Assembly (NCBI GenBank): GCA_015486845.1
Contig: WFQU01000129.1
Span: 3,955 to 67,954 of the forward strand
Direction: 5' to 3'
From: Anaerolineae bacterium
GTDB taxonomy: Bacteria > Chloroflexota > Anaerolineae > JAADDB01
Length of the DNA stretch: 64,000 bases
Below, piece by piece: positions 5,017 to 62,282 of the stretch (positions within the stretch are counted from its first letter, which is position 1; each line of letters opens with the position of its first letter). A program made the position numbers and the translations under genes. The notes below the pieces were generated by a model. That model saw only the letters and a list, made by a program, of their open reading frames with translations. It searched no databases and was not told the origin of the DNA.

Positions 5017-5059
5017 TAAAGATACTCTGCGCCTTTGCGCCGCTGCGTCAACTGATTTT

Positions 5060-5150
5060 CAAGGGAGTTATCATGAGCCTACGGCGCACCACAGCGGATG
5101 AAAATTAAGATCAGCGTGCATCAGCGTTAATCTGCGTTCTATTTTCAGAG
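5060..5150 (+). repeat. Second, shorter repeat block: module S followed by leader module L' (gatcagcgtgcatcagcgttaatctgcgttctattttcagaggag)
   Basis: Same motif set as 50527..50590, 25390..25435 and 45308..45335. Confidence 0.8.
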
Positions 5151-5190
5151 GAGATAATTCTTGGATGCTTACCAAGACAGTTTTGGGCCG

Positions 5191-6287: not shown

Positions 6288-6389
6288 TGCTCTTCACCCG
6301 AAATGCATAACTGTAGTATAATCCAACATGTTTCGCTCGACGTCGAGCGCTTTGTCCTGTTTCCCCCATAGACATTCACCTGAGCACGA

Positions 6390-7562: not shown

Positions 7563-7677
7563 TGCGTGTTACGCAGAGAGGGCTTTAGGAAATAAGCCAT
7601 GTTGTAACCTTTATGCGCTTTTTGCATCACATTAAAAGATGTACCCTATGTTCTTTTACGTGGGGAGAGATATATGT

Positions 7678-7709
7678 CATGCGGGAAAGAGATACACCTT
7701 TCCCGCATG
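7678..7709. other. Perfect 12-bp-stem hairpin (CATGCGGGAAAG agatacac CTTTCCCGCATG) in the dgt-trxB spacer
   Basis: Seen directly in the sequence. There is no T-tract after it, so it is more likely regulatory or structural than an intrinsic terminator. Confidence 0.4.
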
Positions 7710-7811
7710 GTACGTCTTGGCAACATAAAAATGTAGATGAGGGAAATAGCTGTGGAATTTTCACTGTTTGGTACAACAGAAGAAACTAACCAGGATGTAA
7801 AACCGACGGAA

Positions 7812-8756: not shown

Positions 8757-8784
8757 AGCCGCTTTTCTATAGCCGCTACACCAA

Positions 8785-8822
8785 AAAGAGGCAGGTCTCC
8801 GTCGACGGAGACCTGCCTCTTT
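8785..8822. terminator. Perfect 38-bp palindrome (AAAGAGGCAGGTCTCCGTCGACGGAGACCTGCCTCTTT), a likely bidirectional terminator between the convergent genes trxB (+) and kbl-like (-)
   Basis: The palindrome is seen directly. It is flanked by A and T runs on both sides, as expected for convergent transcripts. Confidence 0.6.
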
Positions 8823-8847
8823 CAGTTAGAAATTCAACTTCTGAGCA

Positions 8848-10032: not shown

Positions 10033-10326
10033 TTTGTTCCTTTCTCATGACATGGCACTTTGCCTATTTACTGCTCATAAATACCGATAAAGATTTCAAA
10101 GGCACAAACCCCGTTGCAATCCCATTATTTCCCTCCTTGCGCACTCCGCGTTCTCGGCGGTAAAAGTCTTTTAGTAAAGCCATCCTTTTATCCTGATAGG
10201 TATTCTCAATTTTTTAGGGGTATTTTCCCACCTGACGACGTTGTCAGGCGCGTTTTCGATGTCGCCAGCAATATAAACCACACGGGGAATTTCGTCAAGT
10301 GATGCGTAAAAACGCGGCGTAATCGG

Positions 10327-11613: not shown

Positions 11614-11944
11614 TGTTTTGTTATACCCCCTAACCTGTACAAGCCAGAACCAAAAACTCAACGCAGAGACGCAAAGATTCTTTGATTCTCTTTTTGCCCG
11701 TTTTCTCCGGTTTATACCGTCACTTTTGCCAAATCCTATTCATTCAGTTTAGATTAGTCCATTCCGCTAAACACGCATCATTTCATGTGCCACCATTTTA
11801 CGGTAATATGCCTCATCTTGCCAAGCCATGGCTACATTCTCTTGTCGCGGTCCGTCGAGGAATGGATGCTATTTCCAACAGAAACGGGAAACCGATGTAG
11901 AGACATTTCAGGCTGCCAAGACCTGGAACGTCTCTATGCGACGA

Positions 11945-14900
11945 TCAATTTTTGGGTAGCTGGAACGCTTGCACCCGGCAAGTAGCGCTATCCACCACTA
12001 CGATCCGGTTGCCGCGCAGGCTGTCGATACCCAACGGCAGGGTGAACAGGTTCGCACCGCCGAACTGGCCATACGGCGTGCCGTCCGCTTCGTAAATCTG
12101 CACGCTCTTCGTCGTCGGGACGGTCACGGCAATCCGATCAGGCGGCAAGACAGCCAAATGCGGCGCATCCACGCTGTTGTGCTGGCCAACAAACCAGTTT
12201 CGCAAGACATTTCCTTGTGCGTCGAAAGCCCAGATTCGACCGGAAGCCGATTCGGCAGCGAAAATCAGCCCGGAAGGGATAACTGCTACGTCCACAGGCT
12301 GCCCCGGCCCAAACAGTTGCTTTTTACCACCGATCTGTGCCAAGGTGTGACCTTGTTGATCCATCTTGACAACCCGCACACCGCCGGTATCAGCCACGTA
12401 CAGATTGCCGCCCGGCCCGGTCGTTAGGCCACGCGGACGATACCATGGGCTTTCCGGCCGCACTATAGCAATGAGCTTGCCGTCCGGCGTGAAATGTTTG
12501 AGCAATTGCAACACGGAATCCAAAACCCAGACTGTGCCATCTGGCGCCACGGCCACATCGAACGGTTCCTCGAACTGATCAGGGCCACTCCCGGCGCTGC
12601 CCCAAGCGGTAATGAACTTCCCATCTGCGTCCAGTTTGACAATGCGACGGTTGCCACTATCGGCAACGTAAATCTGGCCACAGCGACAAACGGCCACCCC
12701 GCGTGGCTTGGCGAATTCGCCGTCACCGCTGCCACAATGGCCCGTTTGCCACAATTTTTGCACGGCCAACGCGGGCAAAGATTGCCGTTTAGCAGGGAAA
12801 CTCGCGGCGGGTTTTCCGGCTGGTGGCGTATTGGGCTGGGGCGTCTGCCCTGATAATGACGCAGGCGGCATTACAGCCAACGGCGGTGGCGGCAAGTGCA
12901 ACGTTTCTGGAATTTGATCGCCAACAATGGGAAACAAATAAGTGAGCGGTATCACTGATTGCCCCGCGCCGGGCGGCGTCCACGACAGCGTCAGCGCCCG
13001 GCCACCGCCGTTCTGGAAATAGTCTAAACGAATTTTGTGGAATCCGGCATCCAGATGAATAGCGCCTGCTTTAAACATGGCACCGTGGCTGCCGCCGTTA
13101 TCCACCACCAGTTTGTCGTCGATCCAGAGCATGGAACCGTCATCAGAACGGGTGGCGAAGCCGTAACGGCCGCTCTTCGGCGCGGCGATGTAGCCCACCC
13201 AGCGGATGCTGAACGGTTCCCGCAAAATATTATTGGGCATGATGAACAGGTCTCGCCGCACCACCGCCGGCATGCCTTGCCAATTATTGTTGGGATAATA
13301 ATAGCCTACCAAGCCATTGTCACCGATATTCAGTGTGTATAGCGCCCCTCGCCCAACCGTTGCCGAGGGCATGCCTTCCCCGGCCCAGGAGAGACGCAAC
13401 CGCCCCGGCGTTCCGCCGCTATAATATGACAGCGTGAACGGGTAAAACCCAGCTACCAAGAATTTTGTAACTTGCTGGTCGCCGTGATTGGCCGCAATGA
13501 GCACGTCCTGGCCCAAATGCAGCATCGTGCGCCCCGAAGTGGACAGTTTAAACGTGTAATGGCCGAACTTCGGCACCAACAGCGTGCCGTGCAATTTCAG
13601 GGTGAAAGCCCCTTGCAGCGGCGCTTTCTGGCTGAAGTCGAAGTCCACGGCTGCTACTTTCTGATGCAACAAAGGTCGGCCAGACGCCTTATCACCGGCG
13701 TAGAAATCTGCGGTTAAACCACCTGCTTCGTGCAAAGCAGCCACTGGCACCCGATAGCTGAGGAAAAGTGTGCCGCCGAAAGGATCACGATGTTCCCGGA
13801 AGGCGCCATCCGGGTAAAGCTGTTGAAGAAGTGGAATGACCTGCCGGTCGGCCGTGTTGAGAATGTAAACGACATCGCCTTGCACTGGCCGGCGCAGTGG
13901 CACATCGCGCGTCAAATCCAACGATTGGACCTTTTTTTGCCCGATAAGCTTCACGGCGGAGTGATGGCTGTAATCAGGATCCACTAAAATAGTTGTAGTC
14001 GAGGGAAGGCCATGGATAAACTGGCCGATGGCGGATTCTTGCGGGCTGAACGCTAAGACGACGCTGGGGTTATGGACCTGAACGACAAAATAGTCGTGTA
14101 AACCGGCTTTAGCGCCAAACAGGGCAATGAGCAGTAATAACGCGTAGAGCCAGCCCCGCCCTGTTCTCCCCCAAGCGTGTTGCCAGGCGTCGGCGCCTTG
14201 CTGCAAAATCTCTCCGGCCAACAGAAACGCTAACGGCAAGATCATGACTACCCGCCGGGCATTAGGTGCTTCATGCACTACAGTGAAAATGGCCGTGCTG
14301 ATGCCTACCAGGAACCAGGTCGTGTAGAGAAAGCCCAGCGGCTTCCAAAAATAGCGCAGTGCGTAGAAAAGTCCCACTAGCGCCAGGGCGCCGACGATGG
14401 GGCCCAACATGGGTGCGCCGGGCAGGTTGTTCAGCGCGGCTAAGTCGCCCCGGAAATTGAACATTAACAATACTTTGCGGGCATTATCCACCACCGGCTG
14501 GTAGCTGCCGGCCCGGGCGACATCGCCGAGCACGGAAATATGTTGGGTGCGGCTGAGGAAGATATGCCAATGCCGGCTGACATACGCCAAGAGCGGCAAA
14601 CTTCCCAACGCCGCGGAGAGGGTGAAAAGCACCATCCCTTGCAAATCAGTGCGCCAGCGTGACGATTTTTGCACGCCCAGTCGGATTAACCAGTAAATAA
14701 AATAAAGCATGATCCAGGCCGGTACAACCCGAAAAGCCGTGTAGCTATTCAGTCCCAGGGCCAACATCAACCCACCCCACAGCCAGTGGCTGCGTTTGCC
14801 GCTTTCCTGTGCTTTGAGGATGAAATAGACCAACAACGAAAGGAAGAGCGGCACCAAGATCAGTTCATACACGATGCGGCTGATGGTGATGTGCCAGCGG

Positions 14901-15655
14901 GCCACGGCAAACAGCGCTGTGATGGTCAACGCCACCGGTGGCTTGAAGCGCAGCCGGGCTAACGGGTAAAAAGCAGCCATAGTGAGCGTGCCTACGACCG
15001 CCGAGAGCAAGCGCATAGAGACCACGGAGACACCGAAAAGCTGGAAAAAGAGCGCAATCAGATAGGTGAATAGTGTCGCCTGCCCTTCATTCGTTTCGGC
15101 ATAAGGAATGTAAGGGGCACCATGTAGCCATTTGAGTGCATCCAGGCCATTGTTGCCTTCGTCGGACTGACAACCAAAGGGAAAGGAAGCGATATGCCAA
15201 ACGCGCACCACAAACGCTACCATGATGATTAAAAACAGAACGAGCAATTCCCAACGATGCCTGCGGAACCAGGTTTTGCACCGCTCTAAGAACGGCCGCC
15301 GACCAGGCAACACGCCTTCGAAATAACCACTGATCAAGAAGATAAATATACCGATCAACCATAACCAGAATGGCCAGCCGTCGTAGCGATTCGCCCGTTG
15401 CCAAAAGCCGAAGAGGGCACTAAGGCCCAAAAGCAGGCCCGCGCCGGCTAACAATTCTCCTAAGTGCCACCAGGGACGTGCCGCTATCGCCCCATCGGGC
15501 CAAGAGGGTAGCGGTTTAGCTTGCCAAAGGAAAATAACAATGGCCATCGCGAAAAGGATAAAGCCATCCAGGGGGATGGGTTTGGGCACATGCCAGAAAT
15601 GTTCTGCCCACAGAGCAATCAGCACAGCGATGGAAAGCCAGGTAAAACGTTTCAT
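11945..15655 (-). CDS. Large multidomain protein of 1236 aa. The N-terminal half is a polytopic GT-C-fold glycosyltransferase (ArnT/PMT-like, GT39/GT83 type, with a DE motif in the first loop). The C-terminal half has two PA14 domains, a proline-rich linker and a six-bladed NHL-repeat beta-propeller.
   Basis: The true start is MKRFTWLSIAVLIALW at 15655, with an AGGGAG ribosome-binding site supplied by a repeat module. There are more than ten predicted transmembrane segments, and the loop motif FPFGCQSDEGNNGLDALKW fits the DE loop. Two PA14-like segments are present (...FTLKLHGTLLVPKFGHYTFKLSTSGRTMLHL... and ...FSIRWVGYIAAPKSGRYGFATRSDDGSMLWIDDKLVVDNGG...). NHL repeats follow (...PRGVAVCRCGQIYVADSGNRRIVKLDADGKFI... 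repeated). Confidence 0.75.
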   Translation of the reverse strand: MKRFTWLSIAVLIALWAEHFWHVPKPIPLDGFILFAMAIVIFLWQAKPLPSWPDGAIAARPWWHLGELLAGAGLLLGLSALFGFWQRANRYDGWPFWLWLIGIFIFLISGYFEGVLPGRRPFLERCKTWFRRHRWELLVLFLIIMVAFVVRVWHIASFPFGCQSDEGNNGLDALKWLHGAPYIPYAETNEGQATLFTYLIALFFQLFGVSVVSMRLLSAVVGTLTMAAFYPLARLRFKPPVALTITALFAVARWHITISRIVYELILVPLFLSLLVYFILKAQESGKRSHWLWGGLMLALGLNSYTAFRVVPAWIMLYFIYWLIRLGVQKSSRWRTDLQGMVLFTLSAALGSLPLLAYVSRHWHIFLSRTQHISVLGDVARAGSYQPVVDNARKVLLMFNFRGDLAALNNLPGAPMLGPIVGALALVGLFYALRYFWKPLGFLYTTWFLVGISTAIFTVVHEAPNARRVVMILPLAFLLAGEILQQGADAWQHAWGRTGRGWLYALLLLIALFGAKAGLHDYFVVQVHNPSVVLAFSPQESAIGQFIHGLPSTTTILVDPDYSHHSAVKLIGQKKVQSLDLTRDVPLRRPVQGDVVYILNTADRQVIPLLQQLYPDGAFREHRDPFGGTLFLSYRVPVAALHEAGGLTADFYAGDKASGRPLLHQKVAAVDFDFSQKAPLQGAFTLKLHGTLLVPKFGHYTFKLSTSGRTMLHLGQDVLIAANHGDQQVTKFLVAGFYPFTLSYYSGGTPGRLRLSWAGEGMPSATVGRGALYTLNIGDNGLVGYYYPNNNWQGMPAVVRRDLFIMPNNILREPFSIRWVGYIAAPKSGRYGFATRSDDGSMLWIDDKLVVDNGGSHGAMFKAGAIHLDAGFHKIRLDYFQNGGGRALTLSWTPPGAGQSVIPLTYLFPIVGDQIPETLHLPPPPLAVMPPASLSGQTPQPNTPPAGKPAASFPAKRQSLPALAVQKLWQTGHCGSGDGEFAKPRGVAVCRCGQIYVADSGNRRIVKLDADGKFITAWGSAGSGPDQFEEPFDVAVAPDGTVWVLDSVLQLLKHFTPDGKLIAIVRPESPWYRPRGLTTGPGGNLYVADTGGVRVVKMDQQGHTLAQIGGKKQLFGPGQPVDVAVIPSGLIFAAESASGRIWAFDAQGNVLRNWFVGQHNSVDAPHLAVLPPDRIAVTVPTTKSVQIYEADGTPYGQFGGANLFTLPLGIDSLRGNRIVVVDSATCRVQAFQLPKN

Positions 15656-15690
15656 GCGCACACTCCCTTGAAAATAAACTTCTCTGGAGG

Positions 15691-15725
15691 GTAGCCGAGG
15701 GCAATGCCTTCGGCTACCCTCTGTA
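15691..15725 (-). promoter_or_regulatory. Perfect 13-bp-stem hairpin (GAGGGTAGCCGAgggcaatgccTTCGGCTACCCTC) in the 5' leader of the giant GT-C/PA14/NHL gene. A GC-only hairpin (CCCCTCCCCgtatcGGGGAGGGG) lies further upstream at 15785..15807.
   Basis: Seen directly. It lies between the presumed promoter and the AGGGAG Shine-Dalgarno sequence. Confidence 0.35.
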
Positions 15726-16013
15726 CCGTCTTTGAAAAAAAGACCTCTCCCCTGGCTTGCCGCCCAAAGGGGCGGCAAGCCTCCCCCTCCCCGTATCGGG
15801 GAGGGGGAAAAGCTAAGCGCAGCGCCTTCAAATTAGTCGTGTCATTGCGAGCGAAGCGACAGTGTGATCCTCTTTTTGGTCAAGCAATCTCCAATGATAG
15901 TGAGAGAGAGTGCCACGGCCCTGCCGGGCCTCGCAATGACAAACTTCTCTGAAAATAAGTTGATGCAGCAGCGCCAAGGCACAGGGCGTCTAAAAAAATC
16001 AGGCCTCCTTTTA

Positions 16014-16200
16014 GAGGTTCAACTTCTTCAAGAAGTTGAACCTCTCCGGCGTTTTCCGCCCGAGCGCACGGGGGTCAAATCCCCGTGCTACGTCGCCAAG
16101 AAGCCCCCTGAAAGGGGGCTGGCGTTGAGCAGCCCGTTTGCAGCGGATGCTGCCTTGACGTACCCCGCCGCCGCACCGGAATCGGAACCGCATATCCTCA
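16014..16200 (-). repeat. Inverted-orientation partial copy of the composite repeat (hairpin H plus module R2)
   Basis: GAGGTTCAACTTCTtcaAGAAGTTGAACCTC at 16014..16044, followed by the reverse complement of the R2 core (ccgcccgagcgcacgggggtcaaatccccgtgctacgtcgccaagaagccccctgaaagggggct...). Confidence 0.8.
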
Positions 16201-16350
16201 TTGGGTTTCATGTGTTTCTATTATAGCATCAAAAGGCAACGCAGGGGAATGGCACAAAACGCCAGCCGGCGCGTCGCATGCCGGGCGCTGACAGGGGATG
16301 GATACAATGACTCGCTGAACTTTCGCGCCCTGTTGAACATTTGTCGCATT

Positions 16351-16379
16351 TTGGCCTTTCCCCGCCTTTGCGCTATAAT
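16351..16379 (+). promoter_or_regulatory. Putative sigma-70-type promoter (TTGGCC, 17 nt spacer, TATAAT) for the small downstream ORF
   Basis: TATAAT sits at 16374..16379. The -35 element is weak (TTGGCC). Confidence 0.35.
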
Positions 16380-16444
16380 GTAAATGAACAAAAACGCTAA
16401 CTCTAATCCGTTATGCAGTATCTCGACAGGAGACATATCTCAGC

Positions 16445-16615
16445 ATGAGCGAGATTCGCTCTGATTTGCTGTTGCCAACACAGAGAGCAAAATATCACGG
16501 CATCGACGAACATTTGTTGTTAGCCGGTGCCGGCACCTTCCGCATGTGCGTGGGTGTCGGCACCCACTCTGTCTTGCCCGGGATGGTTCTCATTAAGAAT
16601 AGCCATACGCTATAG
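16445..16615 (+). CDS. Small ORF of 56 aa (MSEIRSDLLLPTQRAKYHGIDEHLLLAGAGTFRMCVGVGTHSVLPGMVLIKNSHTL). It has its own ribosome-binding site, promoter and terminator. Function unknown. It is absent from the 60-aa-or-longer ORF track.
   Basis: AGGAG lies 7 nt upstream of the ATG. An intrinsic terminator follows immediately after the stop codon. It sits just upstream of the 2-oxoacid dehydrogenase operon. Confidence 0.35.
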   Translation: MSEIRSDLLLPTQRAKYHGIDEHLLLAGAGTFRMCVGVGTHSVLPGMVLIKNSHTL

Positions 16616-16618
16616 CCA

Positions 16619-16650
16619 CGACCAGCCGCTGAGCTGGTCGTTCTTTATTT
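16619..16650 (+). terminator. Intrinsic terminator (CGACCAGC cgctga GCTGGTCG followed by TTCTTTATTT)
   Basis: Perfect 8-bp GC-rich stem followed by a T-tract. Confidence 0.6.
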
Positions 16651-16690
16651 AGACAGCGTTACATCTATCACAATAAGGAGGTTTTCCATC

Positions 16691-17698
16691 ATGACTGCAT
16701 ATCAACAACCGTTACCGCCAGCAGCAGAACTTGAAGATAGTGTTCTGCTGCAAATGTACTACCAGATGTTGCGAGCGCGGCGTCTCGATGAGCGGATGTG
16801 GGTGTTACACCGCCAAGGAAAAGTCGCTTTTCACATTTCCGGCATTGGACAAGAAGGCACACAGATCGGCGCTGCTTTCGCCCTGCGCAAAGGATATGAT
16901 TGGGTCTATCCCTACTATCGCGATATTTCATTAGTACTCACTTTGGGCATGACGCCGAGAATGCTCATGTTGGGTCTTTTCGGCAAAAAGGAAGCAGTCA
17001 GCAGCGGCGGCCGGCAAATGCCGGAGCACTTCAGCTACCGTCCTTCCAAACTGGTAACGATTTCCAGCCCCGTAGGCACACAAATCGCCCAGGCGCCGGG
17101 CACCGCCTTCGCCTCCAAGATTAAAGGCAGCGACGAGGTCACCGTAGTTTGTTTTGGCGAAGGCACGACCAGCCAGGGCGATTTCCACGAAGGATTGAAC
17201 TGGGCCAGCATTCACAAGTTGCCGGTCATTTTCCTCTGTCAAAACAACCAATATGCCATTTCGGAACCAATGAGCGTGGAAATGGCGGTGAAAAGCGTGG
17301 CGGATCGAGCTAAAGGATATAACATGGTTGGCGTCAAAGTGGATGGCAACGATGTTTTGGCTGTCTATGATGTCATGCGCGAAGCTGTAGCCCGGGCGCG
17401 AAAAGGGGAAGGGCCCACATTAGTCGAAGGTTTCACCTACAGGCCGGTACCCCATTCCAGTGATGACGACGATCGCACTTATCGCAGTCGCGAAGAGGTG
17501 GAATCTTGGAAGAAAAAAGATCCCATTTTGCGTTTCGAAAAGCTGCTATATGAGCGCAAGCTTTTAGACGATGCTAAGAAAACCGAAATCGAGGCCGGCA
17601 TCATGGATGAAGTCAATGATGCCACCGATTACGCAATGAGAGCGCCTTATCCGGCGGCCGAAGAGTGTCTTTATCCCGTTTACGGGCCGTTGCCTTAG
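16691..17698 (+). CDS. 2-oxoacid (branched-chain keto acid / pyruvate) dehydrogenase E1 component, alpha subunit (TPP-binding)
   Basis: E1-alpha family pattern, GDG...N TPP motif region, 335 aa, first gene of an E1a-E1b-E2-E3 operon. Confidence 0.9.
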   Translation: MTAYQQPLPPAAELEDSVLLQMYYQMLRARRLDERMWVLHRQGKVAFHISGIGQEGTQIGAAFALRKGYDWVYPYYRDISLVLTLGMTPRMLMLGLFGKKEAVSSGGRQMPEHFSYRPSKLVTISSPVGTQIAQAPGTAFASKIKGSDEVTVVCFGEGTTSQGDFHEGLNWASIHKLPVIFLCQNNQYAISEPMSVEMAVKSVADRAKGYNMVGVKVDGNDVLAVYDVMREAVARARKGEGPTLVEGFTYRPVPHSSDDDDRTYRSREEVESWKKKDPILRFEKLLYERKLLDDAKKTEIEAGIMDEVNDATDYAMRAPYPAAEECLYPVYGPLP

Positions 17699-17801
17699 TA
17701 AGCCGGACGAAGCGGAACTAAAAAGCTAACGCGAGGCCACAAGGGCTTTATTCTTCCTTGTACAAGAATCTCATTGCTAAGATACCAATGAGCAAAGGAG
17801 C

Positions 17802-18791
17802 ATGATCATGACAGTGAAATCCATCATTGAAGCGATACATGATACGATATTAGAAGAAATGCGCCGGGATCCGACCATTATCATTACCGGCGAAGACATT
17901 GGCAAGCGGGGCGGTGTTTTCCGAGCGACCCAAGGCCTTTACGATGAGTTCGGCCCCATGCGGGTCATCGACAGCCCGCTTTCGGAACTTTCCATCATTG
18001 GCACGGGCATTGGCATGGCGATCAACGGCCTGCATCCAATTTGCGAAATCCAGTTCGCGGATTTCATTTTCCCCGCTTTCAACCAGATCGTCAACGAAGC
18101 GGCCCGTATCCGTTACCGATCAAACGGTGCCTATACTTGCCCCATGGTGATCCGGGCGCCGTACGGCGGCGGTATTGGCGGGGGCTTGTACCATTCCCAA
18201 TCCGTAGAAGCGTATTTTGCCCACGTGCCGGGGCTCTACGTTTTAGCACCTTCTACCCCTTACGACGCCAAAGGTCTGTTGCGCACGGCATTGCGCACGC
18301 CAGATCCGGTTCTCTTCCTAGAACACAAAAAGACGTATAGGCTGGTCAAAGGGGAAGTGCCGGATGAAGACTATCTCGTTCCCATTGGCAAAGCAAATGT
18401 TGTTCGGGCCGGCGATGATCTGACCGTCATTAGCTACGGTTTGATGTTGCATGAAACATTGAAAGCGGCAGAGATCGTCGGCCGAGAGGGGATTAGCGTA
18501 GAAGTAATCGATTTGCGCACTTTGCATCCGTTGGACAAAGAGACGATTCTGGCTTCGGTAGCAAAAACGAGCAAAGTGCTCACCGTACACGAGGATAATT
18601 TGACCGGCGGTTTAGGTGCGGAGATCAGTGCCATTATTGCTTCTGAAGGATTCGAGGATTTAGACGCACCAATTCGCCGCTACGCCGGCCCAGATATTCC
18701 GGGGGTGCCGTTTAGCCCGCCCATGCAGGATTTCTTCATGCCTAACGCGGCAAAGATCGCCAACCAAATCCGTGACTTAGCCGCTTATTGA
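17802..18791 (+). CDS. 2-oxoacid dehydrogenase E1 component, beta subunit
   Basis: Transketolase-like pyrimidine-binding and C-terminal domains. 329 aa. Confidence 0.9.
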   Translation: MIMTVKSIIEAIHDTILEEMRRDPTIIITGEDIGKRGGVFRATQGLYDEFGPMRVIDSPLSELSIIGTGIGMAINGLHPICEIQFADFIFPAFNQIVNEAARIRYRSNGAYTCPMVIRAPYGGGIGGGLYHSQSVEAYFAHVPGLYVLAPSTPYDAKGLLRTALRTPDPVLFLEHKKTYRLVKGEVPDEDYLVPIGKANVVRAGDDLTVISYGLMLHETLKAAEIVGREGISVEVIDLRTLHPLDKETILASVAKTSKVLTVHEDNLTGGLGAEISAIIASEGFEDLDAPIRRYAGPDIPGVPFSPPMQDFFMPNAAKIANQIRDLAAY

Positions 18792-18870
18792 CGCTTTTTG
18801 CGTCTCTGCACTGAGTTCTTTGGGTTCTGGTTCGTCCAGGGTAGAAATATAGCGCTAAAAGGAGACAAAA

Positions 18871-20352
18871 TTGGCTGAATATATCGTTATGCCCCAATTA
18901 GGGGAGAGCATTGTTGAAGGAACGGTCAGCAAGTGGCTGGTAAAAGAAGGCGATCCGGTTAAACGCTACGACCCCGTTTTGGAAGTTGGCAGTGACAAGG
19001 TGGACACCGAGGTGACTTCCACAGCGGACGGGGCCATTCTGCGCATCGTGGTACCGGAGGGCAAGACGGTGAAAGCCGGCACGATTTTAGCTGTGGTCGG
19101 CCAGCCTGGCGAGGCAATTGGCGAGATTCCCGCAGCCATCGCGTTGCACGCTGCCGAAACAACCCCCGCGGAAGCAGCCCCACCATCACCACCGGCTATC
19201 ACGCCGGTTGTGGCCCGCATGGCTGCGGAACACAACCTGGATCTAATGAAAATCAAAGGTAGCGGCGCCGGGGGGCGGATCACCAAAAAAGACGTGCTGG
19301 ACTATTTAGCGCAACGCCAGGCAGCAGAGAAAGTGATCGAATTGCCGCCGTGGGAACAGCCCGGCAGCGGCGATCTCTTCAAGCCAACCGATCAATTCGT
19401 GAAAGAGGTCGTTTCAGCGAAGCCAGAACCGAGGGTTCCACCTCAGCCAGGCCAAAAAGCGCTGGCCATCAGTCCTGTGGTGGCTCGTTTGGCAGCACAA
19501 CACGGGGTGGATCTCAATGCCGTGCGCGGTAGTGGTGCCGGAGGGCGGATCACCAAAAAGGATATTTTGGCTTTCGTGGAAGGGCGTAAAACAGCGCCGG
19601 CCGCTCAGCCTGTGCCGCTCGCCACACCTGTTCCGCCGCCATCATTCATCGCGCCGGCGCCGGCGGCGGGTGAAGATGAAGTAGTTGTGCCGCTGACCCG
19701 CATGCGCCGGCTCATTGCGGAGCACATGGTGCTGAGTAAGCACACCGCACCCCATGCTACCAGTGTCATGGAAGCAAATTTGAGCAAAGTAGTAGCGCAC
19801 CGGGCCGCAAACAAAGACGCTTTTGCCGCCAAAGGTGTACGACTTACTTTCATGCCCTATTTCGTGCAGGCCACGGTGACCGCGTTAAAAGCCGTGCCGG
19901 AAATGAACAGCATTTTCCGGGAAGACGCGTTAGTACTGAAGCGGCGCATTCATATTGGCATGGCGGTGGCTATCCCCGACGGGCTGATGGTGCCGGTCCT
20001 TCGCGACGCGGATGAAAAGAACTTGTTAGGCTTGGCCCGGACGGTCAACGATTTGGCAGAACGGGCTCGTTTGGGTAAGCTATCCCCGGGTGAATTGGGA
20101 GGCAGCACATTTTCAATCACCAATCATGGCACTGGCGGCAGTCTTTTTGCGGCGCCAGTCATCAACCAGCCCAACGTGGGCATTTTGGGGATCGGCATTA
20201 TCCAGAAACGGGTTGTGGTAATCGACGATGCCATCGCCATCCGGCCGATGGTTTATTTGAGCTTGTCTTTTGACCACAGAGCCGTAGACGGCGCCGGGGC
20301 GGACCGGTTTTTGTTAGTCGTTAAAGAGACGTTGGAGAATTGGACAGCATAA
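18871..20352 (+). CDS. Dihydrolipoamide acyltransferase (E2) with one lipoyl domain, two peripheral-subunit-binding domains and the catalytic domain
   Basis: Lipoyl-lysine motif (VGSDKVDTEV). Two PSBD copies are present (PVVARMAAEHNLDLMKIKGSGAGGRITKKDVLDYL and PVVARLAAQHGVDLNAVRGSGAGGRITKKDILAFV). The catalytic DHRAVDGA motif is present. Confidence 0.9.
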   Translation: MAEYIVMPQLGESIVEGTVSKWLVKEGDPVKRYDPVLEVGSDKVDTEVTSTADGAILRIVVPEGKTVKAGTILAVVGQPGEAIGEIPAAIALHAAETTPAEAAPPSPPAITPVVARMAAEHNLDLMKIKGSGAGGRITKKDVLDYLAQRQAAEKVIELPPWEQPGSGDLFKPTDQFVKEVVSAKPEPRVPPQPGQKALAISPVVARLAAQHGVDLNAVRGSGAGGRITKKDILAFVEGRKTAPAAQPVPLATPVPPPSFIAPAPAAGEDEVVVPLTRMRRLIAEHMVLSKHTAPHATSVMEANLSKVVAHRAANKDAFAAKGVRLTFMPYFVQATVTALKAVPEMNSIFREDALVLKRRIHIGMAVAIPDGLMVPVLRDADEKNLLGLARTVNDLAERARLGKLSPGELGGSTFSITNHGTGGSLFAAPVINQPNVGILGIGIIQKRVVVIDDAIAIRPMVYLSLSFDHRAVDGAGADRFLLVVKETLENWTA

Positions 20353-22055: not shown

Positions 22056-22400
22056 CTAGAAGTTCAACTTCTTCAAGAAGTTGAACTTCTAGAACGGCAA
22101 CATCTGCAAAATCGCCCTACGGCGATTAGCATGCAACCTGCGTAGGCAAGTTTCGCAGCTGTGGCAGCGATTTCTAATCGCAGGGCGAAGCAGCCTGTGT
22201 TGACCTACGTCCCATTCCGGTGGGCCGGCCCCTTGCCGCCGCGGCGGCGGGGTACGTCGGTCCGCTGCCAAGAGGCTGCTCAACACCAGCCCCCTTTTAG
22301 GGGGCTTCTTGGCGACGTAGTACGGGGATTTGACCCCCGTGCGCTCGGGCGGAGAACGCTGTCGATTGGAAGTTCAACTTCTCGCAGAAGTTGAACTTCT
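22056..22400. repeat. Repeat cluster made of hairpin H (22056..22093), an inverted R1-family copy (22089..22200), an R2 copy (22210..22365) and a second hairpin H (22369..22399)
   Basis: The sequence ctaGAAGTTCAACTTCTtcaAGAAGTTGAACTTCtag is followed by acatctgcaaaatcgccctacggcgatt..., then the R2 core and GAAGTTCAACTTCTcgcAGAAGTTGAACTTC. The track ORFs 22089..22286, 22161..22394 and 22280..22494 lie inside the repeats. Confidence 0.85.
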
Positions 22401-22514
22401 TTAAAAAATTGACCACGCATGTTGTTGTTGCCTGGAACGTTGTCGGCGTTGGGGATAGTTTTGCGCCAATCAGCCATGACATAACGGAGTCCATTTTTGA
22501 CTATTGTTTTTTTA

Positions 22515-22566
22515 TCTGCGTGCGCAGCCTGCGTTAATCTGCGTCCTATTTTTATTTTCAGAGGAG
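22515..22566 (+). repeat. Leader module L (ttatctgcgtgcgcagcctgcgttaatctgcgtcctatttttattttcagaggag), positioned 75 nt upstream of the fabD start
   Basis: Near-identical blocks occur at 50715..50782 (where it supplies the secG Shine-Dalgarno) and at 59135..59203. Confidence 0.8.
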
Positions 22567-25212: not shown

Positions 25213-25284
25213 CGTGTTGCCGGAGGCTACATAACGGCTCAGCCCAGGTCAAATGGAACGCTGATGGGCCCAGCGACAAAAGTC

Positions 25285-25435
25285 ACGGCAACAATCTGCA
25301 AAATCGCCCTACGGCGATTAGCTTGCAGCCTGCGCAGGCAGGTTTCGCAGCTGTGGCAGCGATTTCTAATCGCCGGACAAGGCAGACTGCGTTAATCAGC
25401 GTTCTATTTTCCAGAGCATTCTATTTTCAAAGGAG
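25285..25435. repeat. Inverted R1-family copy (caacaatctgcaaaatcgccctacggcgattagcttgcagcctgcgcaggcaggtttcgcagctgtggcagcgatttctaatcgcc...) fused to leader module L' (gcgttaatcagcgttctattttccagagcattctattttcaaaggag), which ends 10 nt before the next start codon
   Basis: Direct comparison with 2128..2503 (reverse complement) and with 22089..22200. Confidence 0.8.
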
Positions 25436-44765: not shown

Positions 44766-45363
44766 CTCTATTTTATTGAGACATGGGCACAAAAGTATAG
44801 CATAGCAAAACGTTTTCTCAAAAGCGTAGTTGCTAATAACCTCGGGCTATTGGTATAGCCAGTCGTGACTCATCCGAAAACAGGCTCACCGCGGAATACG
44901 CAACGTGCGCCGCGGTCAAATTAGTGTGATTTTAGCAACTATTTGCTTCCGAAACTGTAACTGCTCGTTTCTGATAAAACAGTGGCGCCGGCACGGGCCG
45001 GCGGCCGGCCTGTGCCGGCACGCAGACAGGCGCACCATAGCGGCTGAAAACGCCCCCTATCCCCCAACCTTGGGGGGAGCAACATGCCCCAGCCCTCCGA
45101 AAAAGGGTCTTGGCTACGCCGGATCTGGTTCGTTGCGGGCAGCACTCCCTCTCGCCACGCTGCGGTCTGCCGCTATCCTGTTGGCAACGAGCGCATAGCC
45201 CGTGTTGTCGTCGTGCGTTGGTATGCGCTTAATCGTGGCTAATCGTATGAGCCGGGTCTGATAACATGAATTTTCGTGTTGCTGGCGTAATATATTTGAG
45301 ATCAGCGTTGATCAGCGTTCTATTTTCAAATGAAACAAAATTGCTGGTCGCAAGCAGCTTTGT

Positions 45364-48454: not shown

Positions 48455-48556
48455 GTTATCATAAGCCCGACAAGGTGGAGAAGTTCAACTTCTGTCAGAA
48501 GTTGAACTTCTCCACCGGAAAGTTTTCTTGACGCTTTGCGTCGGCTATTTTCAAGG
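48455..48556 (+). repeat. Repeat block made of a partial module S, hairpin H (48479..48510) and leader module T (ttttcttgacgctttgcgtcggctattttcaagggacagc), ending 6 nt before the birA ATG
   Basis: GAAGTTCAACTTCTgtcAGAAGTTGAACTTC. The T module also occurs at 52955..53020 upstream of the PBP gene. Confidence 0.8.
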
Positions 48557-50210: not shown

Positions 50211-50782
50211 TTGTCACAAGCCCGCCACAGCGGCTGAAAAACTGCGGCTGGTGTAAGCCTTTAGGTGGGTTGGTGAGTCTATTACCGACTAAAGCTTCGA
50301 TTCCGGTACGGCGGCGGGGTACGTCAAGGTAGCGTCTGTTGCCAAGAGGCGACTCAACACCAGCCCCCTTTCTGGTGGCTTCTTGGCGACGTAGCACGGG
50401 CCTTTGACCTCCGTGCGCTTGGGCAGGGAACGCCGTCGATTAAAGTTCAACTTTTTGAAAAAGTTGAACTTCTTAAAGGAGACCTGATTTTGAAGGGACT
50501 GTTTCCGTATTGCCTGCGTAATATATTTGAGATCAGCGTTAATCAGCGTTCTATTTTCAAGGGAGTTATCATGGGCCTGCGGCACACCACAGCGGATGAA
50601 AACCTATGGCTGGACTCGAGCCTTTAGGCGGTTTTGTAGCGTTACCCCCGGCTAAAGCCTCGAGTCCGGCGCAATGGGAGCTATTTTCAGGGGAGAATCT
50701 GTTACTAATTTCTTGACCATTGTTTTTTATCTGCGTGCGCAGCCTGCGTTGATCTGCGTCCCATTTTTATTTTCAGAGGAGG
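50211..50782 (+). repeat. Largest repeat cluster in the window. It contains module S with the R2 copy (50211..50440), hairpin H (50443..50471), a second S with leader L' block (50510..50610), and leader module L (50715..50782), whose AGGAGG is the secG Shine-Dalgarno sequence.
   Basis: Direct alignment with the copies at 4740..5150 and 22160..22566. The upstream part of track ORF 50674..51012 is repeat sequence. Confidence 0.85.
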
Positions 50783-52683: not shown

Positions 52684-52701
52684 ACACGGTAACATTGGTG
52701 A

Positions 52702-52733
52702 GACGTTCAACTTCTCAAAGAAGTTGAACGTCT
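52702..52733. repeat. Hairpin H variant with compensatory outer-stem changes (GACGTTCAACTTCTcaaAGAAGTTGAACGTC)
   Basis: Same invariant core as the other copies. The outer base pair has switched from A:T to C:G. Confidence 0.85.
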
Positions 52734-52954
52734 TCACCGGAAAGCTCCGTGCTACGTTAATGGGAAGCCCCCTTCAGGGGGCTGAAGTCACGCAGCCCGC
52801 TTCAGCGGGCTTGGACTTGCTGTAGCCCGGCGGCTTTAGCCCCGGGCAGGTTTGCGGTGCGGCTTCAATTGCGGTTGTGATCAGCGGCAATGAATTAGGT
52901 GCCCCTGATGCGGCAGATTTAATCCTGAGACGGCAGGTCACGGACCTGCCTGGA

Positions 52955-58692: not shown

Positions 58693-58704
58693 GAAGACAT
58701 CATG

Positions 58705-59205
58705 AGACTACGGCCTGCCTTGTGCGCTGCGCGCGGACAGGCACACCATAGCGGATGAAAGTCGGCCGATAGCCGGTAGGCGTTCGCCGTTAGCAAATAT
58801 ATAAGCGGACGTTGCTGGAGCATTAATCGTGGGGAGCTGAAGCCGCACCGAAAGTGCCTGCAGCCAGGCGACCACCTACGTGGTCGCGACGACGCCAACG
58901 CACAAGAGCGAGACATTCAACTTCTGAGAGAAATTGAATGTCTGCACTGCGGTTGAAACCGCGGCACAGGAAACCGGCAAAGCAGTTCGCCCGTGCGTAG
59001 TGCAGTTTTGGCTGCTGGCAGCTGGAGCTTAGCCTTTTGGCAGCCTGGAAGCGTCGACACCGGCTAAAGCCTCGACTCCAGTGCTGGGGAAAGTGTCGCA
59101 CTTTTTTCGCGACGACATCTTCGGGATCGTTTTTTGACCGTTGTTTTTTTATCTGCGTGCGCAGCCTGCGTTTATCTGCGTCCCATTTCATTTTCAAGGG
59201 AGGGC
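58705..59205. repeat. Repeat cluster made of an S-like module (58705..58760), hairpin H variant GACATTCAACTTCTgagAGAAATTGAATGTC (58912..58942) and leader module L (59135..59203)
   Basis: Alignment with the other copies. It marks the boundary of an islet that looks lower in GC. Confidence 0.8.
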
Positions 59206-59555
59206 GGTGGCCGTCATCCCGTGCCAGGAACTGCGAGAGAGCGTGTTTAAGCAAGTACGGTAGAGACATAGCAAATAATCATCCAATGTGGTAAAATATA
59301 GGTGATAATTCATAAAGATTTTGCTGAACGACGAGTCCGAATCAACAGTATTGATCGCTCGTTCGATCTGGAATTTCGGAGTAAACAAACACACCAGGCG
59401 CGTTTTGACGTAGCCTGGACATTGGCCACTCATGCAAACAGGGTCAAGGGGTTAGCTGTTCGTCAACTCCGACTTCACCAACCCATTGAGGTTTTTCGAC
59501 GTTTACAGCGTTAAATACCTTGTGATCGTGAGTATATTATTCAAGGAGTCAAGTC

Positions 59556-59786
59556 ATGCCTTCAACAGCCATCGCGACGGTGGAGAGGATGTTAGAGCCT
59601 TTGCCGGAAGAAGCGCAAGAGCGAGTCGTAGAACACCTGCGAGAGTATATTTTAGACCTGGAGGATGAACTTCTGTGGGACGATCAATTCAGAAGCACGC
59701 AGGACAAGCTTATCATGGCAGCCCGCCGTGCCAAGAAAGAGATTGCTGCTGGCAAAGCGGAACCCATGGACTTTGAACGACTATGA
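59556..59786 (+). CDS. Type II toxin-antitoxin system antitoxin, partner of a RelE/ParE-family toxin
   Basis: 76 aa, acidic N-terminus and a C-terminal ...AARRAKKEIAAGKAEPMDFERL tail, typical of antitoxins that pair with this toxin clade. Its stop overlaps the toxin start (ATGA). Confidence 0.55.
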   Translation: MPSTAIATVERMLEPLPEEAQERVVEHLREYILDLEDELLWDDQFRSTQDKLIMAARRAKKEIAAGKAEPMDFERL

Positions 59787-60063
59787 AGTCGGCCACGTTA
59801 CCCTCCTTCTGGGAAGCCTATGCCTCCCTTGGCGAAGACGTCAGACGCCAGGCGAGGAAAGCCTTCGATTTATGGATTCAGAACCCATTTCTCATCCATC
59901 TCTGCACTTCAAGTGCATCAATTGCGAGGAAGATATTTGGTCTGTCCGGATAACCCGACAATATCGTGCAGTAGGTGTCTGAGAAGTAGGTGTCTGAGAA
60001 GGAGATGTCGTCACCTGGTTTTGGATTGGTCACCATGACCATTACCAACGCTTCTTTTCGTGA
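59783..60063 (+). pseudogene. RelE/ParE-superfamily toxin gene disrupted by a 1-bp deletion (frameshift at about 59888..59892) and a 15-bp tandem duplication (59971..60000) that introduces in-frame TGA codons
   Basis: Frame 1 reads MKSATLPSFWEAYASLGEDVRRQARKAFDLWIQNPF. Frame 2 reads HPSLHFKCINCEEDIWSVRITRQYRAVGV*EVGV*EGDVVTWFWIGHHDHYQRFFS*. Together these rebuild a canonical toxin of about 90 aa (...NP..LH.K......WSVRI...YRA.......WFWIGSH..Y). Confidence 0.6.
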
Positions 60064-60408
60064 TCGAGTCCGTTTATCGCTCCGAAATGTCAAAGACAAG
60101 CCATCGCACTTGCCGCTGTTCTCGTATTTAGGCCAGTTTGTCATCCAGACCCATGGTTTCGTCGCCGAGAAGGAACATGGTAAGATGGGCCCAGCAGCCA
60201 GCAGCAGCCGGGTTATGATCCTGGATTCTTTGTCAAACTCGAGAAACTGGAACATGCCATGTCAGACAAGTATCCGTACTATCTCTTGGCACGTCATTTT
60301 CAGATCGTTGCAACTAAGCCTGGAAATGATGTAGGTCTTTAGGCAACACAATCAATGGTCAATGTCATGTCAAACTGAATTAGGCCGCCGCTGGCGAGAA
60401 AGTGAACA

Positions 60409-60981
60409 TTGCAAATGACTTCTATCTCTGAGAATCAGAAAGCTCGAATAATTTCTTTGCTCCAGGAAAGGCAACTCGGCCGCGAAGAGATCGCAGCGAA
60501 AGTCGGCGTTTCTCCCGGAACGGTCAGCGCAATCAAGGCGCATGTGACGATGGGTACTTACGGGACGGCCTCTAATCCCGAAACAGAAACCGACGAGCTT
60601 ATCGATGCTGCCGAAACAACATTTGGACTTGAACGTGATTTACAGCTTGCGTTGCGATCGAACATCCAGCAACTCGAAGATGGGCTCACTATCATTGATG
60701 GTGGCAAGGAATGCGTTACCGACGCAGGCAGAATCGATATTCTTGCCCGAGCCCTAGATGATTCGATTGTTGTGATTGAATTGAAGGCGGGGATGGCTTC
60801 CCCGGCAGCTTTGACCCAACTCTTAGCCTATATGGGAACCATCAACGAGCAGGGCAAGGCAGTGCGAGGAGTTTTAGTAGCAGGCGACTTTCATCCACGC
60901 GTTGTATTCGCGGTGAGAGCTGTGCCCCGTGTGAGGTTGTACCGATATCGTTTCAAATTCAATTTTGAGTCAGTGGAGTAA
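60409..60981 (+). CDS. N-terminal HTH domain fused to a DUF91/NucS-C-type PD-(D/E)xK nuclease domain
   Basis: HTH (EEIAAKVGVSPGTVSAI). C-terminal ...GRIDILARALDDSIVVIELKAGMASPAALTQLLAYM...VRGVLVA... matches the D...(D/E)xK core of NucS/DUF91-like nucleases. Confidence 0.5.
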   Translation: MQMTSISENQKARIISLLQERQLGREEIAAKVGVSPGTVSAIKAHVTMGTYGTASNPETETDELIDAAETTFGLERDLQLALRSNIQQLEDGLTIIDGGKECVTDAGRIDILARALDDSIVVIELKAGMASPAALTQLLAYMGTINEQGKAVRGVLVAGDFHPRVVFAVRAVPRVRLYRYRFKFNFESVE

Positions 60982-61117
60982 GTTCCAGGCTACAAGAGAT
61001 CTCATTACAGCTGCTTCCGCTCGACCGCGATTGCACTGGCATTCAAGCAGCCGTCCGAACCTGATCACAAGCTCGCCCACCGCCAAACCTATTAAGGACA
61101 TAAGACAGAGAGAAAAA

Positions 61118-61810
61118 GTGAAAACACTCATCGTCATGCCGCTGCCGGAAGAAATGGCACCATTCATGGAGCTTTGTGCGGCTAAGTCCATTCGGTTAGA
61201 GGCTGCTACGATAGGAAAACTTGATGTAACACACTGTCCAGATTTAGACCTGACGGTGGCTAACGGCGGTCTCGGCAAAACGCAGTTCGCGATACAGGTG
61301 CAGCACTTGCTGGATTTTTCTCCAGATTTCGATCTGGTTATTTGTGCAGGGGCGGCCGGGGCGTTAGATGATCCTCTCACCATCGGGGATGTGGTGATCG
61401 CAACGGAGACAGTGGAATACGACATTTACAACGGATTCGCAACACCGTTGCTGCCCCGGTACCCCAGCGACGAAAGCGTTCGTAACTCGTTTAGAGAAAT
61501 ACCGTTTGGAGAAAATGCTTTTCGGGTGCATTTTGGGCCCATTGCCAGCGGGGACGAGGATATTGTCGGTATCGAGCGAAAAAAGGAGATTCAAAGAAAA
61601 ACAGGTGGGCTGGCGGTAGCCTGGGAAGGGGCCGGAGGTGCCCGTGCTTGCCAGTTCAACCGGGTACCCTACCTGGAAATTCGAGGTGTGACGGACGATG
61701 CCGATGGAACTGCTTTGACGGATTTCAAGAAGAATCTGCCGGCAGCCATGCGTAATGTAGCGGCGGTGATTTTAGCCTGGGCTGAGAGACAGAAGGCGGC
61801 ATCATCATAG
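61118..61810 (+). CDS. MTA/SAH nucleosidase family protein (PNP_UDP_1 fold; an MtnN-like or MqnB-like futalosine hydrolase)
   Basis: GTG start. The pattern TLIVMPLPEEMAP...ICAGAAGAL...IGDVV...GDEDIV...AVAWEGAGGARACQFNRVPYLEIRGVTDDAD parallels the MtnN catalytic core. Confidence 0.6.
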   Translation: MKTLIVMPLPEEMAPFMELCAAKSIRLEAATIGKLDVTHCPDLDLTVANGGLGKTQFAIQVQHLLDFSPDFDLVICAGAAGALDDPLTIGDVVIATETVEYDIYNGFATPLLPRYPSDESVRNSFREIPFGENAFRVHFGPIASGDEDIVGIERKKEIQRKTGGLAVAWEGAGGARACQFNRVPYLEIRGVTDDADGTALTDFKKNLPAAMRNVAAVILAWAERQKAASS

Positions 61811-61856: not shown

Positions 61857-62282
61857 ATGACCAACAAAGATGACGATTTCAGGATAGAACGGGATTCCAC
61901 GGGCGAAATCGCTGGGCCGGGCGGCGCACTTTATGGCGCCGAGACCTAACGCTCTGTAGAGCTCAGCGGTTAGTTGAAGCGGGTGGTGGCGTCGTTGCGA
62001 AAAATCGCCCAGGATTTGTGCTGGATGAACTCAGTGCCCGTTTCCGGCCTGGCCGAGATCCAGTTGCCGGCGTTGCAGCCCGGTTCGTCCATCATGCCGG
62101 GCAAAATCAACCCGGTCATCCCGGAAGCGGTCATTCAGGGGACAACGCAAGTCATGGGGCAAGACCTGATCGTGACGGTGAGCGGGGCCATGGGCAATTT
62201 TCAACTCAATGTCATGTTGTCCGTCATAGCAAATGGCGATTGTTCTACTATAATTGATCTACATTGCAATTACCGGCAGTGA
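61857..62282 (+). pseudogene. Remnant of a class II fumarate hydratase / aspartate ammonia-lyase gene. The N-terminal 30 codons are intact, followed by stop codons and an in-frame internal deletion of about 250 codons, then a fragment carrying the [11 protein letters not shown] signature that is C-terminally truncated.
   Basis: MTNKDDDFRIERDSTGEIAGPGGALYGAET* matches the FumC/AspA N-terminus. 61974..62282 encodes ...[20 protein letters not shown]...GNFQLNVM..., the fumarase/aspartase signature region. Confidence 0.65.

Follow-up and report, generated by a model that had tools for sequence, protein, structure and literature searches.

A putative fossil integron cassette with an HTH-NucS_C nuclease gene beside an apparently unrelated MTA/SAH-type nucleosidase gene in an Anaerolineae genome

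The DNA analyzed here, referred to as the window, is a stretch of 64,000 nucleotides of contig WFQU01000129.1 (assembly GCA_015486845.1) from an Anaerolineae bacterium. Close to its right end lie two co-oriented open reading frames (ORFs) on the + strand, at 60409..60981 and 60965/61118..61810, which encode a helix-turn-helix (HTH) protein with a NucS_C-type PD-(D/E)xK nuclease domain and a PNP_UDP_1 nucleosidase, respectively (Table 1). An initial annotation, made from the sequence alone, had named both domains, and had also noted a decayed toxin-antitoxin (TA) module upstream, a decayed fumC remnant downstream, a repeat cluster on the left and a UbiD-family gene at the start of the window, all of which were found in our analysis. 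From this layout and an apparently low GC content it had proposed that the two genes could form a defense module in an islet or, alternatively, that the nucleosidase is a displaced menaquinone gene or a housekeeping enzyme next to an unrelated orphan nuclease. The stretch is indeed AT-richer than its surroundings, with a GC content of 49.9% at 59.0-61.6 kb, about 2 standard deviations under same-size segments (rank 10 of 615); however, the mean of the window is 53.7% and not the supposed 58%, and only 58-59 kb, directly to the left, reaches 59.9%. The suggested check of codon usage showed both genes to be atypical, their fit to the window (z = -2.4 for the nuclease gene and z = -2.1 for the nucleosidase gene) being the third and fourth lowest of 48.

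Table 1. Features at the nuclease-nucleosidase locus, in coordinates of the window
Feature	Position	Strand	Evidence or remark
Antitoxin-like ORF of decayed TA pair, 76 aa, intact	59556..59786	+	ORF list; possibly an older cassette
Decayed ParE-like toxin gene	59783..60062	+	Three-frame reading, tandem repeat, ParE_like match after repair
Degenerate core site TTTAGGC (canonical GTTRRRY), putative left cassette boundary	60338..60344	+	Aligns to core GTTATGC of the Gemmatimonadaceae cassette L007
Putative cassette 5' leader, conserved with L007	60339..60414	+	57/76 nt identical (75%)
HTH + NucS_C-type PD-(D/E)xK nuclease gene, 188 aa	60415..60981	+	Pfam, PADLOC, NCBIfam, family alignment, AlphaFold2/Foldseek, dN/dS
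Spacer at the expected place of attC	60982..61107	+	attC apparently eroded beyond recognition; ends where homology to the relative L003 begins (61108)
PNP_UDP_1 nucleosidase gene, predicted MTA/SAH-nucleosidase (MtnN-like) type, 230 aa	61118..61810	+	Pfam, NCBIfam, solved relatives, synteny with L003; outside the putative cassette
fumC (class II fumarase) remnant	61974..62282	+	Lyase_1 E = 3.7e-18, only profile positions 253-312

The nuclease ORF opens at a TTG codon at 60409, and the ATG at 60415, which gives the protein present in the database (P0121) and is in register with the family alignment, is most likely the true start. In Pfam the protein matched NucS_C with 39.1 bits (cut-off 24) and HTH_23 with 22.9 bits, just below the cut-off, the sub-threshold matches to HTH_23 and HTH_28 covering residues 7-49. 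In an AlphaFold2 model made with 20 homologues (mean pLDDT 80), three helices form a bundle at residues 6-45, which is followed by an acidic linker without order (47-67), then by a long helix and the alpha/beta core of the nuclease; the best fold matches of this model in the PDB were the catalytic domains of EndoMS/NucS (5GKE, 2VLD; Foldseek E ~3e-7, 112 aligned residues). All 20 aligned family members have D108, E122, K124, Q135 and Y139, and the predicted PD-(D/E)xK site looks intact. With NucS/EndoMS (PF01939) the protein shares the C-terminal RecB-like PD-(D/E)xK domain and its D...ExK motif (best sequence match E = 1.5e-9). In contrast to these enzymes, however, which are about 250 aa long, it has a three-helix HTH and an acidic linker in place of the N-terminal DNA-binding and dimerization domain, and it belongs to a sporadic, cassette-borne family, whereas NucS/EndoMS is a core repair gene; the NCBIfam NucS models scored it with only 58.6 bits (cut-off 216) and 36.3 bits (cut-off 252).

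The family comprises 775 database proteins at E <= 0.001. An identity of 60-80% is maintained across many phyla of Bacteria and Archaea, among them Gemmatimonadota, Acidobacteriota, Chloroflexota, Nitrospinota, Poribacteria, Deinococcota, Thermotogae, Desulfobacterota and several methanogen lineages. DNA homology among the loci extends beyond the ORF by no more than a few tens of bases. The recognition helix (GTVSAIKAH) hardly varies between phyla, which argues for a target that is independent of the host. Carriage by phages or plasmids was rejected on the basis of database searches: the family had no match in the INPHARED phages and just two partial matches in the 2.9 million contigs of IMG/VR, and on plasmids only distant matches to the nuclease domain were found, on 20 of them.

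The second gene starts with a GTG codon, and its product is identical to database protein P0001. It consists of a single PNP_UDP_1 domain (89.7 bits), the gene being the only one of this type in the 64 kb, and the best curated model was that of the 5'-methylthioadenosine/S-adenosylhomocysteine (MTA/SAH) nucleosidases (NF004079; E = 4.7e-26), which aligned over residues 2-224. Each of the 39 relatives of solved structure belongs to the MTA/SAH nucleosidase (MTAN) type and is either an MTA/SAH or an aminofutalosine nucleosidase. All 17 aligned family members have E12, E170, R189 and D193, and the stretch W169-E170...R189..T192-D193 aligns to the catalytic motif ME...R..SD of Staphylococcus aureus MTAN (3BL6). 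In view of the full-length NCBIfam alignment, E12 is presumably the equivalent of the catalytic Glu12 of MTAN enzymes. The window protein, which like MtnN/Pfs has one PNP_UDP_1 domain and a length of about 230 aa and aligns in full length to the MTAN model, would thus have the counterparts of Glu12, Glu174, Arg193 and Asp197. As is the case for MtnN/Pfs, the gene stands alone amid metabolic neighbors, and it has a dN/dS (ratio of non-synonymous to synonymous divergence) of 0.16 relative to its counterpart in the closest available relative (L003, GCA_015486895.1). It differs from MtnN/Pfs in a Trp where MTANs have Met173 (motif WEGAGGAR) and, as read from the alignment, in an Ala at the position of Ser76, and it belongs to a distinct clade. 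Its family numbers over 2100 proteins in the database at E <= 0.001, the closest named matches being from metagenome-assembled genomes (MAGs) of Chloroflexi and Tectomicrobia. On these grounds we conclude that the protein is a resident MTAN-like adenine-nucleoside hydrolase of a divergent clade, which is predicted to be active.

The assignment to the MTAN type has to be set against the curated thresholds, since the protein missed every equivalog cut-off, including those of both MtnN models (91.7 bits against 169 for NF004079 and 48.6 against 73.8 for TIGR01704). These shortfalls, together with the Trp in place of Met173, sub-threshold matches to HpnG (56.5 bits) and to the futalosine hydrolase MqnB (TIGR03664, 54.8 bits) and the presence of a UbiD-family gene in the window, would fit a more specialized enzyme, either a futalosine or aminofutalosine hydrolase related to MqnB or a hopanoid-associated nucleosidase related to HpnG. 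However, the scores for MqnB and HpnG lie much further under their cut-offs (124.7 and 187.1, respectively) than the MTAN score under its own, and the solved relatives are without exception of the MTAN type. In addition, neither mqn genes nor hopanoid genes were recurrent in a set of 149 neighbors of family members from 67 loci, and the UbiD-family gene, a partial decarboxylase gene at 1-813 on the - strand that runs off the window start (UbiD_N + UbiD, E = 1e-25 to 1e-38), is 60 kb away; the ten large ORFs in the first 16 kb (1-15,778) included no futalosine-pathway (mqn) gene. A specialized function of either kind is thus unlikely, and the idea of a displaced mqnB was not borne out. The clade with the WEGAGGAR motif, with more than 2000 members, mostly from uncultured lineages, that fall below the MtnN cut-offs, represents an enzyme-annotation gap for these lineages.

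The layout of the locus could suggest that both proteins act together in a new anti-phage module, in which the HTH-nuclease would detect or cleave the DNA of an invader and the nucleosidase would deplete a nucleotide pool, like the PNP effectors of Detocs and of the cyclic-oligonucleotide-based anti-phage signaling system (CBASS). The same orientation of the genes, the gap of only 136 bp between them and the lack of a predicted terminator in this gap count in favor of such a link and against two independent genes, as does the fact that the codon usage of the nucleosidase gene, too, is somewhat atypical. PADLOC gave a partial match of the nuclease to the PDC-S02 model PDLC04824, in which residues 34-187 cover positions 139-306 of 308 (E = 9.6e-18) and the N-terminal 138 model positions are unmatched, and, as the sole match of the nucleosidase, a weak one of 70 residues to a PNP effector (E = 2.2e-5). 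However, the two genes did not occur together elsewhere. When 79 nuclease loci from species-representative genomes (1.26 Mb) and 80 nucleosidase loci from metagenomes (0.39 Mb) were searched with tblastn and profile hidden Markov models, the nuclease loci contained a single PNP homologue, which is distant (26% identity), 8 kb off and on the opposite strand, and no nuclease homologue was found in the nucleosidase loci, although only 33 of these 80 are longer than 3.7 kb, a shortness that weakens this negative result. A conserved third partner was considered as well and dropped, since no family of neighbors was present in more than four loci, be it of the nuclease or of the nucleosidase, when the three genes to either side were clustered all against all. 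According to Pfam scans, the 132 neighbors of the nuclease and the 149 of the nucleosidase are heterogeneous and mostly housekeeping or metabolic genes without conservation, and a few nuclease loci lie by chance near CRISPR-Cas, AbiU or type I restriction-modification genes. In L003, a 77%-identical nucleosidase gene, the closest relative of that in the window, is likewise followed by a fumC remnant, is preceded by an unrelated gene for a 460-aa lipoprotein and has no nuclease gene beside it; DNA homology to the window is confined to 61108-61793 and 61975-62230.

Since co-occurrence and conserved neighbors are lacking and the nucleosidase of L003 does without the nuclease, the juxtaposition of the two genes in the window is a local accident, even if they may be co-transcribed and may have acquired some local functional link. 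The nucleosidase moreover shares with Detocs DtcC and the CBASS effectors only the PNP_UDP_1 superfamily; it has no receiver, SAVED or other sensor domain and no partner genes, its homologues are located amid metabolic genes outside defense contexts, and it is a far better match to housekeeping MTAN. The closest relatives of the nuclease, in turn, are single-gene cassettes, as described below. A two-gene defense module is therefore very improbable. The combination of a nuclease and a PNP nucleosidase in a low-GC patch had looked like a new defense system, and with the pair tested in 159 loci this false lead is removed, in favor of the alternative of the initial annotation, a housekeeping-type nucleosidase next to an unrelated nuclease. 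The idea of an islet holds for the nuclease gene, which was acquired horizontally, probably with an integron cassette as a vehicle that had not been foreseen; the nucleosidase gene lies outside it.

In a Nitrospinota MAG two copies of the nuclease gene on different contigs (L010 and L013) share a common unit of 733 bp that is 97% identical and ends with G|TTGTGC and CGTTG|G. A 13-nt inverted repeat had suggested a tiny element similar to an insertion sequence or a homing element; this was dropped because the ends correspond to the R' and R'' boxes of attC, the recombination site of integron cassettes. Their identity explains the high similarity of the gene across phyla, the absence of conserved neighbors and the limitation of DNA homology to the ORF, a combination that traffic of integron cassettes can account for in general. 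Consistent with such cassettes, many loci have an imperfect hairpin of the form RYYYAAC...GTTRRRY and 55-100 nt length downstream of the stop codon of the nuclease, and in many a GTTRRRY core is present 20-90 nt upstream of its ATG. From a locus on a Blastocatellia chromosome (L021), 14 attC sites were aligned to a consensus hairpin in which 15 of the 23 pairs show compensatory double changes and in which unpaired spacers and extrahelical bases occur as expected. The covariance model derived from these sites (R1) found at least 36 attC sites in the 20-kb locus, arrays in both Nitrospinota loci and sites adjoining the nuclease gene in further loci (L006, L007, L019, L057, L166 and L168/169), and AT-rich attC sites were recognized by hairpin scanning in L011, L016 and L023. 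An RNAalifold analysis gave no structure for an alignment of attC sites from mixed genomes, in contrast to the homogeneous array of L021; hand-written attC detectors, which were too strict or at background level, were used for clear arrays only, and a shuffling test for individual loci was confounded inside arrays.

A gene for an integron integrase (intI) lies divergently upstream of the array in L010 (TIGR02249, 291 bits; cut-off 265), its ORF being cut short at codon 259, apparently by a stop. In L166, a nuclease gene that is 80% identical to that of the window is located between TA cassettes, and all five nearest relatives of the window nuclease (77-81% amino acid identity) are cassette-borne. 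One archaeal locus (L026) also retains the conserved cassette end GGCAACAGTAGATAAC. Integrons are present in Archaea and carry cassettes across domains (PMC9668308), which provides a route for the spread of the nuclease between them.

Some details of these loci are worth recording in their own right. In L010, intI occupies 5594-6577 (-) and the array 9093-19286 (+), and besides the nuclease cassette there are three paralogous cassettes of 620-850 bp. The Blastocatellia locus (L021 1-20543; CAVSKO010000002.1, 3.44-3.46 Mb) is a very dense sedentary array with all its attC sites on one strand, several of which follow each other at a distance of just about 240 bp, so that a normal ORF would not fit into the cassettes between them. 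In L166 the attC site behind the nuclease gene (1439-1480) stops right after the R'' box (GCATAAC) and is directly followed by the next ORF, which suggests that a deletion or an aberrant recombination at R'' fused two cassettes.

In the window, the evidence for the same origin is found at the 5' side of the nuclease gene. Homology to the Gemmatimonadaceae cassette L007 starts at the TT that follows the crossover G, in place of which the window has a T at 60338, and runs through the leader into the ORF. The local alignment score of the leader was reached by none of 2000 shuffles, while the next 76 nt upstream are unrelated (1624 of 2000 shuffles reached the score). An exact 5' boundary can still betray the origin of a cassette after its attC site has decayed. 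The region from 60339 to 61107 measures 769 bp, compared to 733-740 bp for intact cassettes, and comparison of the ORF with cassette copies gave a dN/dS of 0.10-0.14 at a synonymous divergence (dS) of about 0.8-1.4, a ratio that indicates purifying selection and hence that the ORF was kept. With integron cassettes, including those of single attC sites or of attC clusters lacking an integrase (SALINs and CALINs, respectively), the window copy has in common the unit size of about 740 bp with a short leader and one ORF, a left boundary that coincides in position with the crossover of GTTRRRY, although the site is mutated, and nearest homologues that are genuine cassettes, having attC sites and arrays and, in a single case, intI; the TA module alongside is a further feature shared with sedentary chromosomal integrons. 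We read the segment from 60339 to about 61100 as a putative fossil cassette that appears to have become fixed in place and domesticated.

The last approximately 24 nt of the leader (60390-60414; CTGGCGAsAAAGTGAACATTGCA) are almost identical in the window and L007 despite a dS of about 0.8 in the ORF. They contain no obvious Shine-Dalgarno sequence and may represent a conserved regulatory element or an operator for the HTH protein.

A number of negative results at the locus itself speak against a cassette origin of the window copy. No attC site was found at 58.6-61.2 kb with the covariance model (E <= 10, filters off), an attC profile of the relatives had no match downstream of the nuclease gene in an nhmmer search, and hairpin scans of the window remained at background level without a cluster of attC sites. 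Likewise, tblastn with an IntI1 probe detected no intI in the 64 kb. Neither core site is intact, the left one reading TTTAGGC and the right end of the unit having no GTT, and the window thus differs from known integron cassettes in its mutated core sites, in an attC site that is undetectable, and in having neither intI nor other attC sites in the 64 kb. The case for a cassette origin is accordingly made by the 5' boundary and by the relatives. The failure to detect attC fits the divergence of the copies, because a dS of 0.8-1.4 predicts that neutral sequence is no longer recognizable. Comparison of the spacer to the attC site of L007 yielded a marginal similarity (44 of 2000 shuffles), with two of three pairwise shuffle tests negative; a decayed attC site 3' of the gene that was composed by eye (L''/L' stem GCTGCTT/AAGCAGC, R''-like TCATTAC) is not claimed, given the negative outcome of nhmmer, the covariance model and two of the three shuffle tests. 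A cassette origin of the nucleosidase was rejected too, with 53 attC-like hairpins in its 82 loci compared to 50 in reversed controls.

About two thirds of the examined loci of the nuclease family were also without attC, which speaks against cassettes as the sole habitat and indicates that the gene lives outside integrons as well. The nuclease could accordingly be an ordinary chromosomal gene, for example for DNA repair or a regulatory nuclease, from which cassettes were recruited at times and of which the window copy was never part of a cassette; the missing attC and intI in the window, the purifying selection and the mostly housekeeping neighbors in other genomes would all agree with that. 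However, an ordinary chromosomal gene would hardly account for a homology to L007 that takes in the 76-nt leader and ends exactly at the G|TT crossover, nor for the lack of the nuclease gene at the syntenic site in L003, and its codon usage is among the least typical of the window. As the five nearest relatives are cassettes and 60-80% identity across bacterial and archaeal phyla indicates horizontal spread, we regard a purely chromosomal history of the window copy as improbable.

In summary, it is probable that the two genes are unrelated neighbors, an old and immobilized nuclease cassette beside a resident, housekeeping-type MTA/SAH-type nucleosidase. The nucleosidase gene would have come to its place beside fumC by vertical inheritance, and its product would most likely cleave adenine from by-products of S-adenosylmethionine metabolism (MTA, SAH, 5'-deoxyadenosine and possibly aminofutalosine) by means of the conserved Glu12, Glu170, Arg189 and Asp193. 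An integron integrase would have placed a promoterless unit of about 740 bp, consisting of 5' leader, ORF and attC, into a G|TT site a short way upstream of this gene, either as a single insertion of the SALIN or attG type or as the last survivor of a small array that also contained the now decayed ParE-like TA pair. The insertion of cassettes outside integrons (SALINs, attG sites) has been shown experimentally (Loot et al., bioRxiv 10.1101/2022.09.11.507474), and TA modules and single-gene nucleases are the commonest recognizable cassette functions, TA modules being the commonest in chromosomal integrons (bioRxiv 10.1101/2024.07.02.601686). Later, mutation of both crossover sites and erosion of the attC hairpin would have made the cassette immobile, with the nuclease ORF staying under purifying selection after its fixation. 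The novelty of this locus is modest and lies in a widely travelled, uncharacterized HTH-NucS_C cassette that is apparently preserved here as an immobilized fossil beside a divergent MTAN-type nucleosidase.

With regard to the function of the nuclease, the three-helix HTH would tether a NucS-like, Mg2+-dependent PD-(D/E)xK nuclease, probably as a dimer, to DNA that is then cut. The protein could attack foreign DNA as a streamlined single-gene defense, and a role against mobile genetic elements is our best, if tentative, guess, because the protein is encoded by a single-gene cassette, partially matches PDC-S02 and is similar in plan to single-gene nuclease fusions by which Vibrio is protected from phages. 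It resembles PDC-S02 and single-gene nuclease defenses such as Shedu, which are frequent in integron cassettes, in being one gene with a C-terminal NucS-like or PD-(D/E)xK nuclease and a variable N-terminal domain. However, of the 308 positions of the PDC-S02 model it covers only the C-terminal half, no match to DUF4263 of Shedu is present, and the neighborhood of the nuclease is, in contrast to these systems, not enriched in defense genes. A defense role is further weakened by PDC-S02 itself being unvalidated, one representative having given no protection against T4, T5 or T7 (bioRxiv 10.1101/2024.09.26.614923). It is conceivable, though we hold it to be doubtful, that HTH-NucS_C constitutes an undescribed single-gene nuclease function in defense or addiction which integrons circulate across at least a dozen bacterial phyla and Archaea, and that the domesticated copy in the window has outlived its attC site through a benefit to the host. 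As a small, highly conserved and cassette-borne family with an apparently intact catalytic site, it offers a reasonable and cheap candidate for screens of anti-phage or anti-plasmid nucleases encoded by cassettes.

The TA pair to the left of the putative cassette begins with an ORF that has a weak Pfam match (HAAS, E = 0.014) and overlaps the start of the toxin gene by 4 nt; from its position and size, its product may be the antitoxin. The toxin gene carries three lesions, namely a frameshift near 59890, an in-frame TGA at 59980-59982 and a 15-nt tandem duplication at 59970-59999, and the repaired protein of 87 aa matched ParE_like above the cut-off (31.3 bits versus 24.4; profile positions 2-66 of 67).

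On the right side, the fumC remnant is 89.8% identical at the nucleotide level to L003 3643-3898. Over 61975-62230 the dS is 0.33 and the dN/dS 0.18, with 16 of 28 differences at third codon positions, whereas the intact nucleosidase gene has only 78% nucleotide identity and a dS of 0.94 relative to L003, so that a piece of a pseudogene is better conserved than its functional neighbor. The fragment may have been exchanged recently, may stem from a gene with strong codon bias that decayed recently and independently, or may still have a function. A short ORF at 61857 (61857-61950; MTNKDDDFRIERDSTGEIAGPGGALYGAET) may represent the N-terminus of FumC, and would then imply an internal deletion.

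Two kinds of repeats were also observed. The left-hand repeat cluster at 58700-59210 is composed of short dispersed intergenic repeats (40-75 nt, 77-89% identical), which are not attC sites; further copies lie at 4789-4850, 22494-22566, 45002-45049, 48475-48512, 50619-50782 and 52700-52737 in the window and, in L003, between the nucleosidase gene and the fumC remnant (3535-3608). A palindromic element of about 110-145 nt, which forms a hairpin of about -24 kcal/mol on both strands, is present in at least three copies (88-90% identical) at 22095-22205, 25267-25410 and, past the end of the window, in L002 3606-3749, and looks like a repeat of the repetitive extragenic palindrome or miniature inverted-repeat transposable element (REP/MITE) type.

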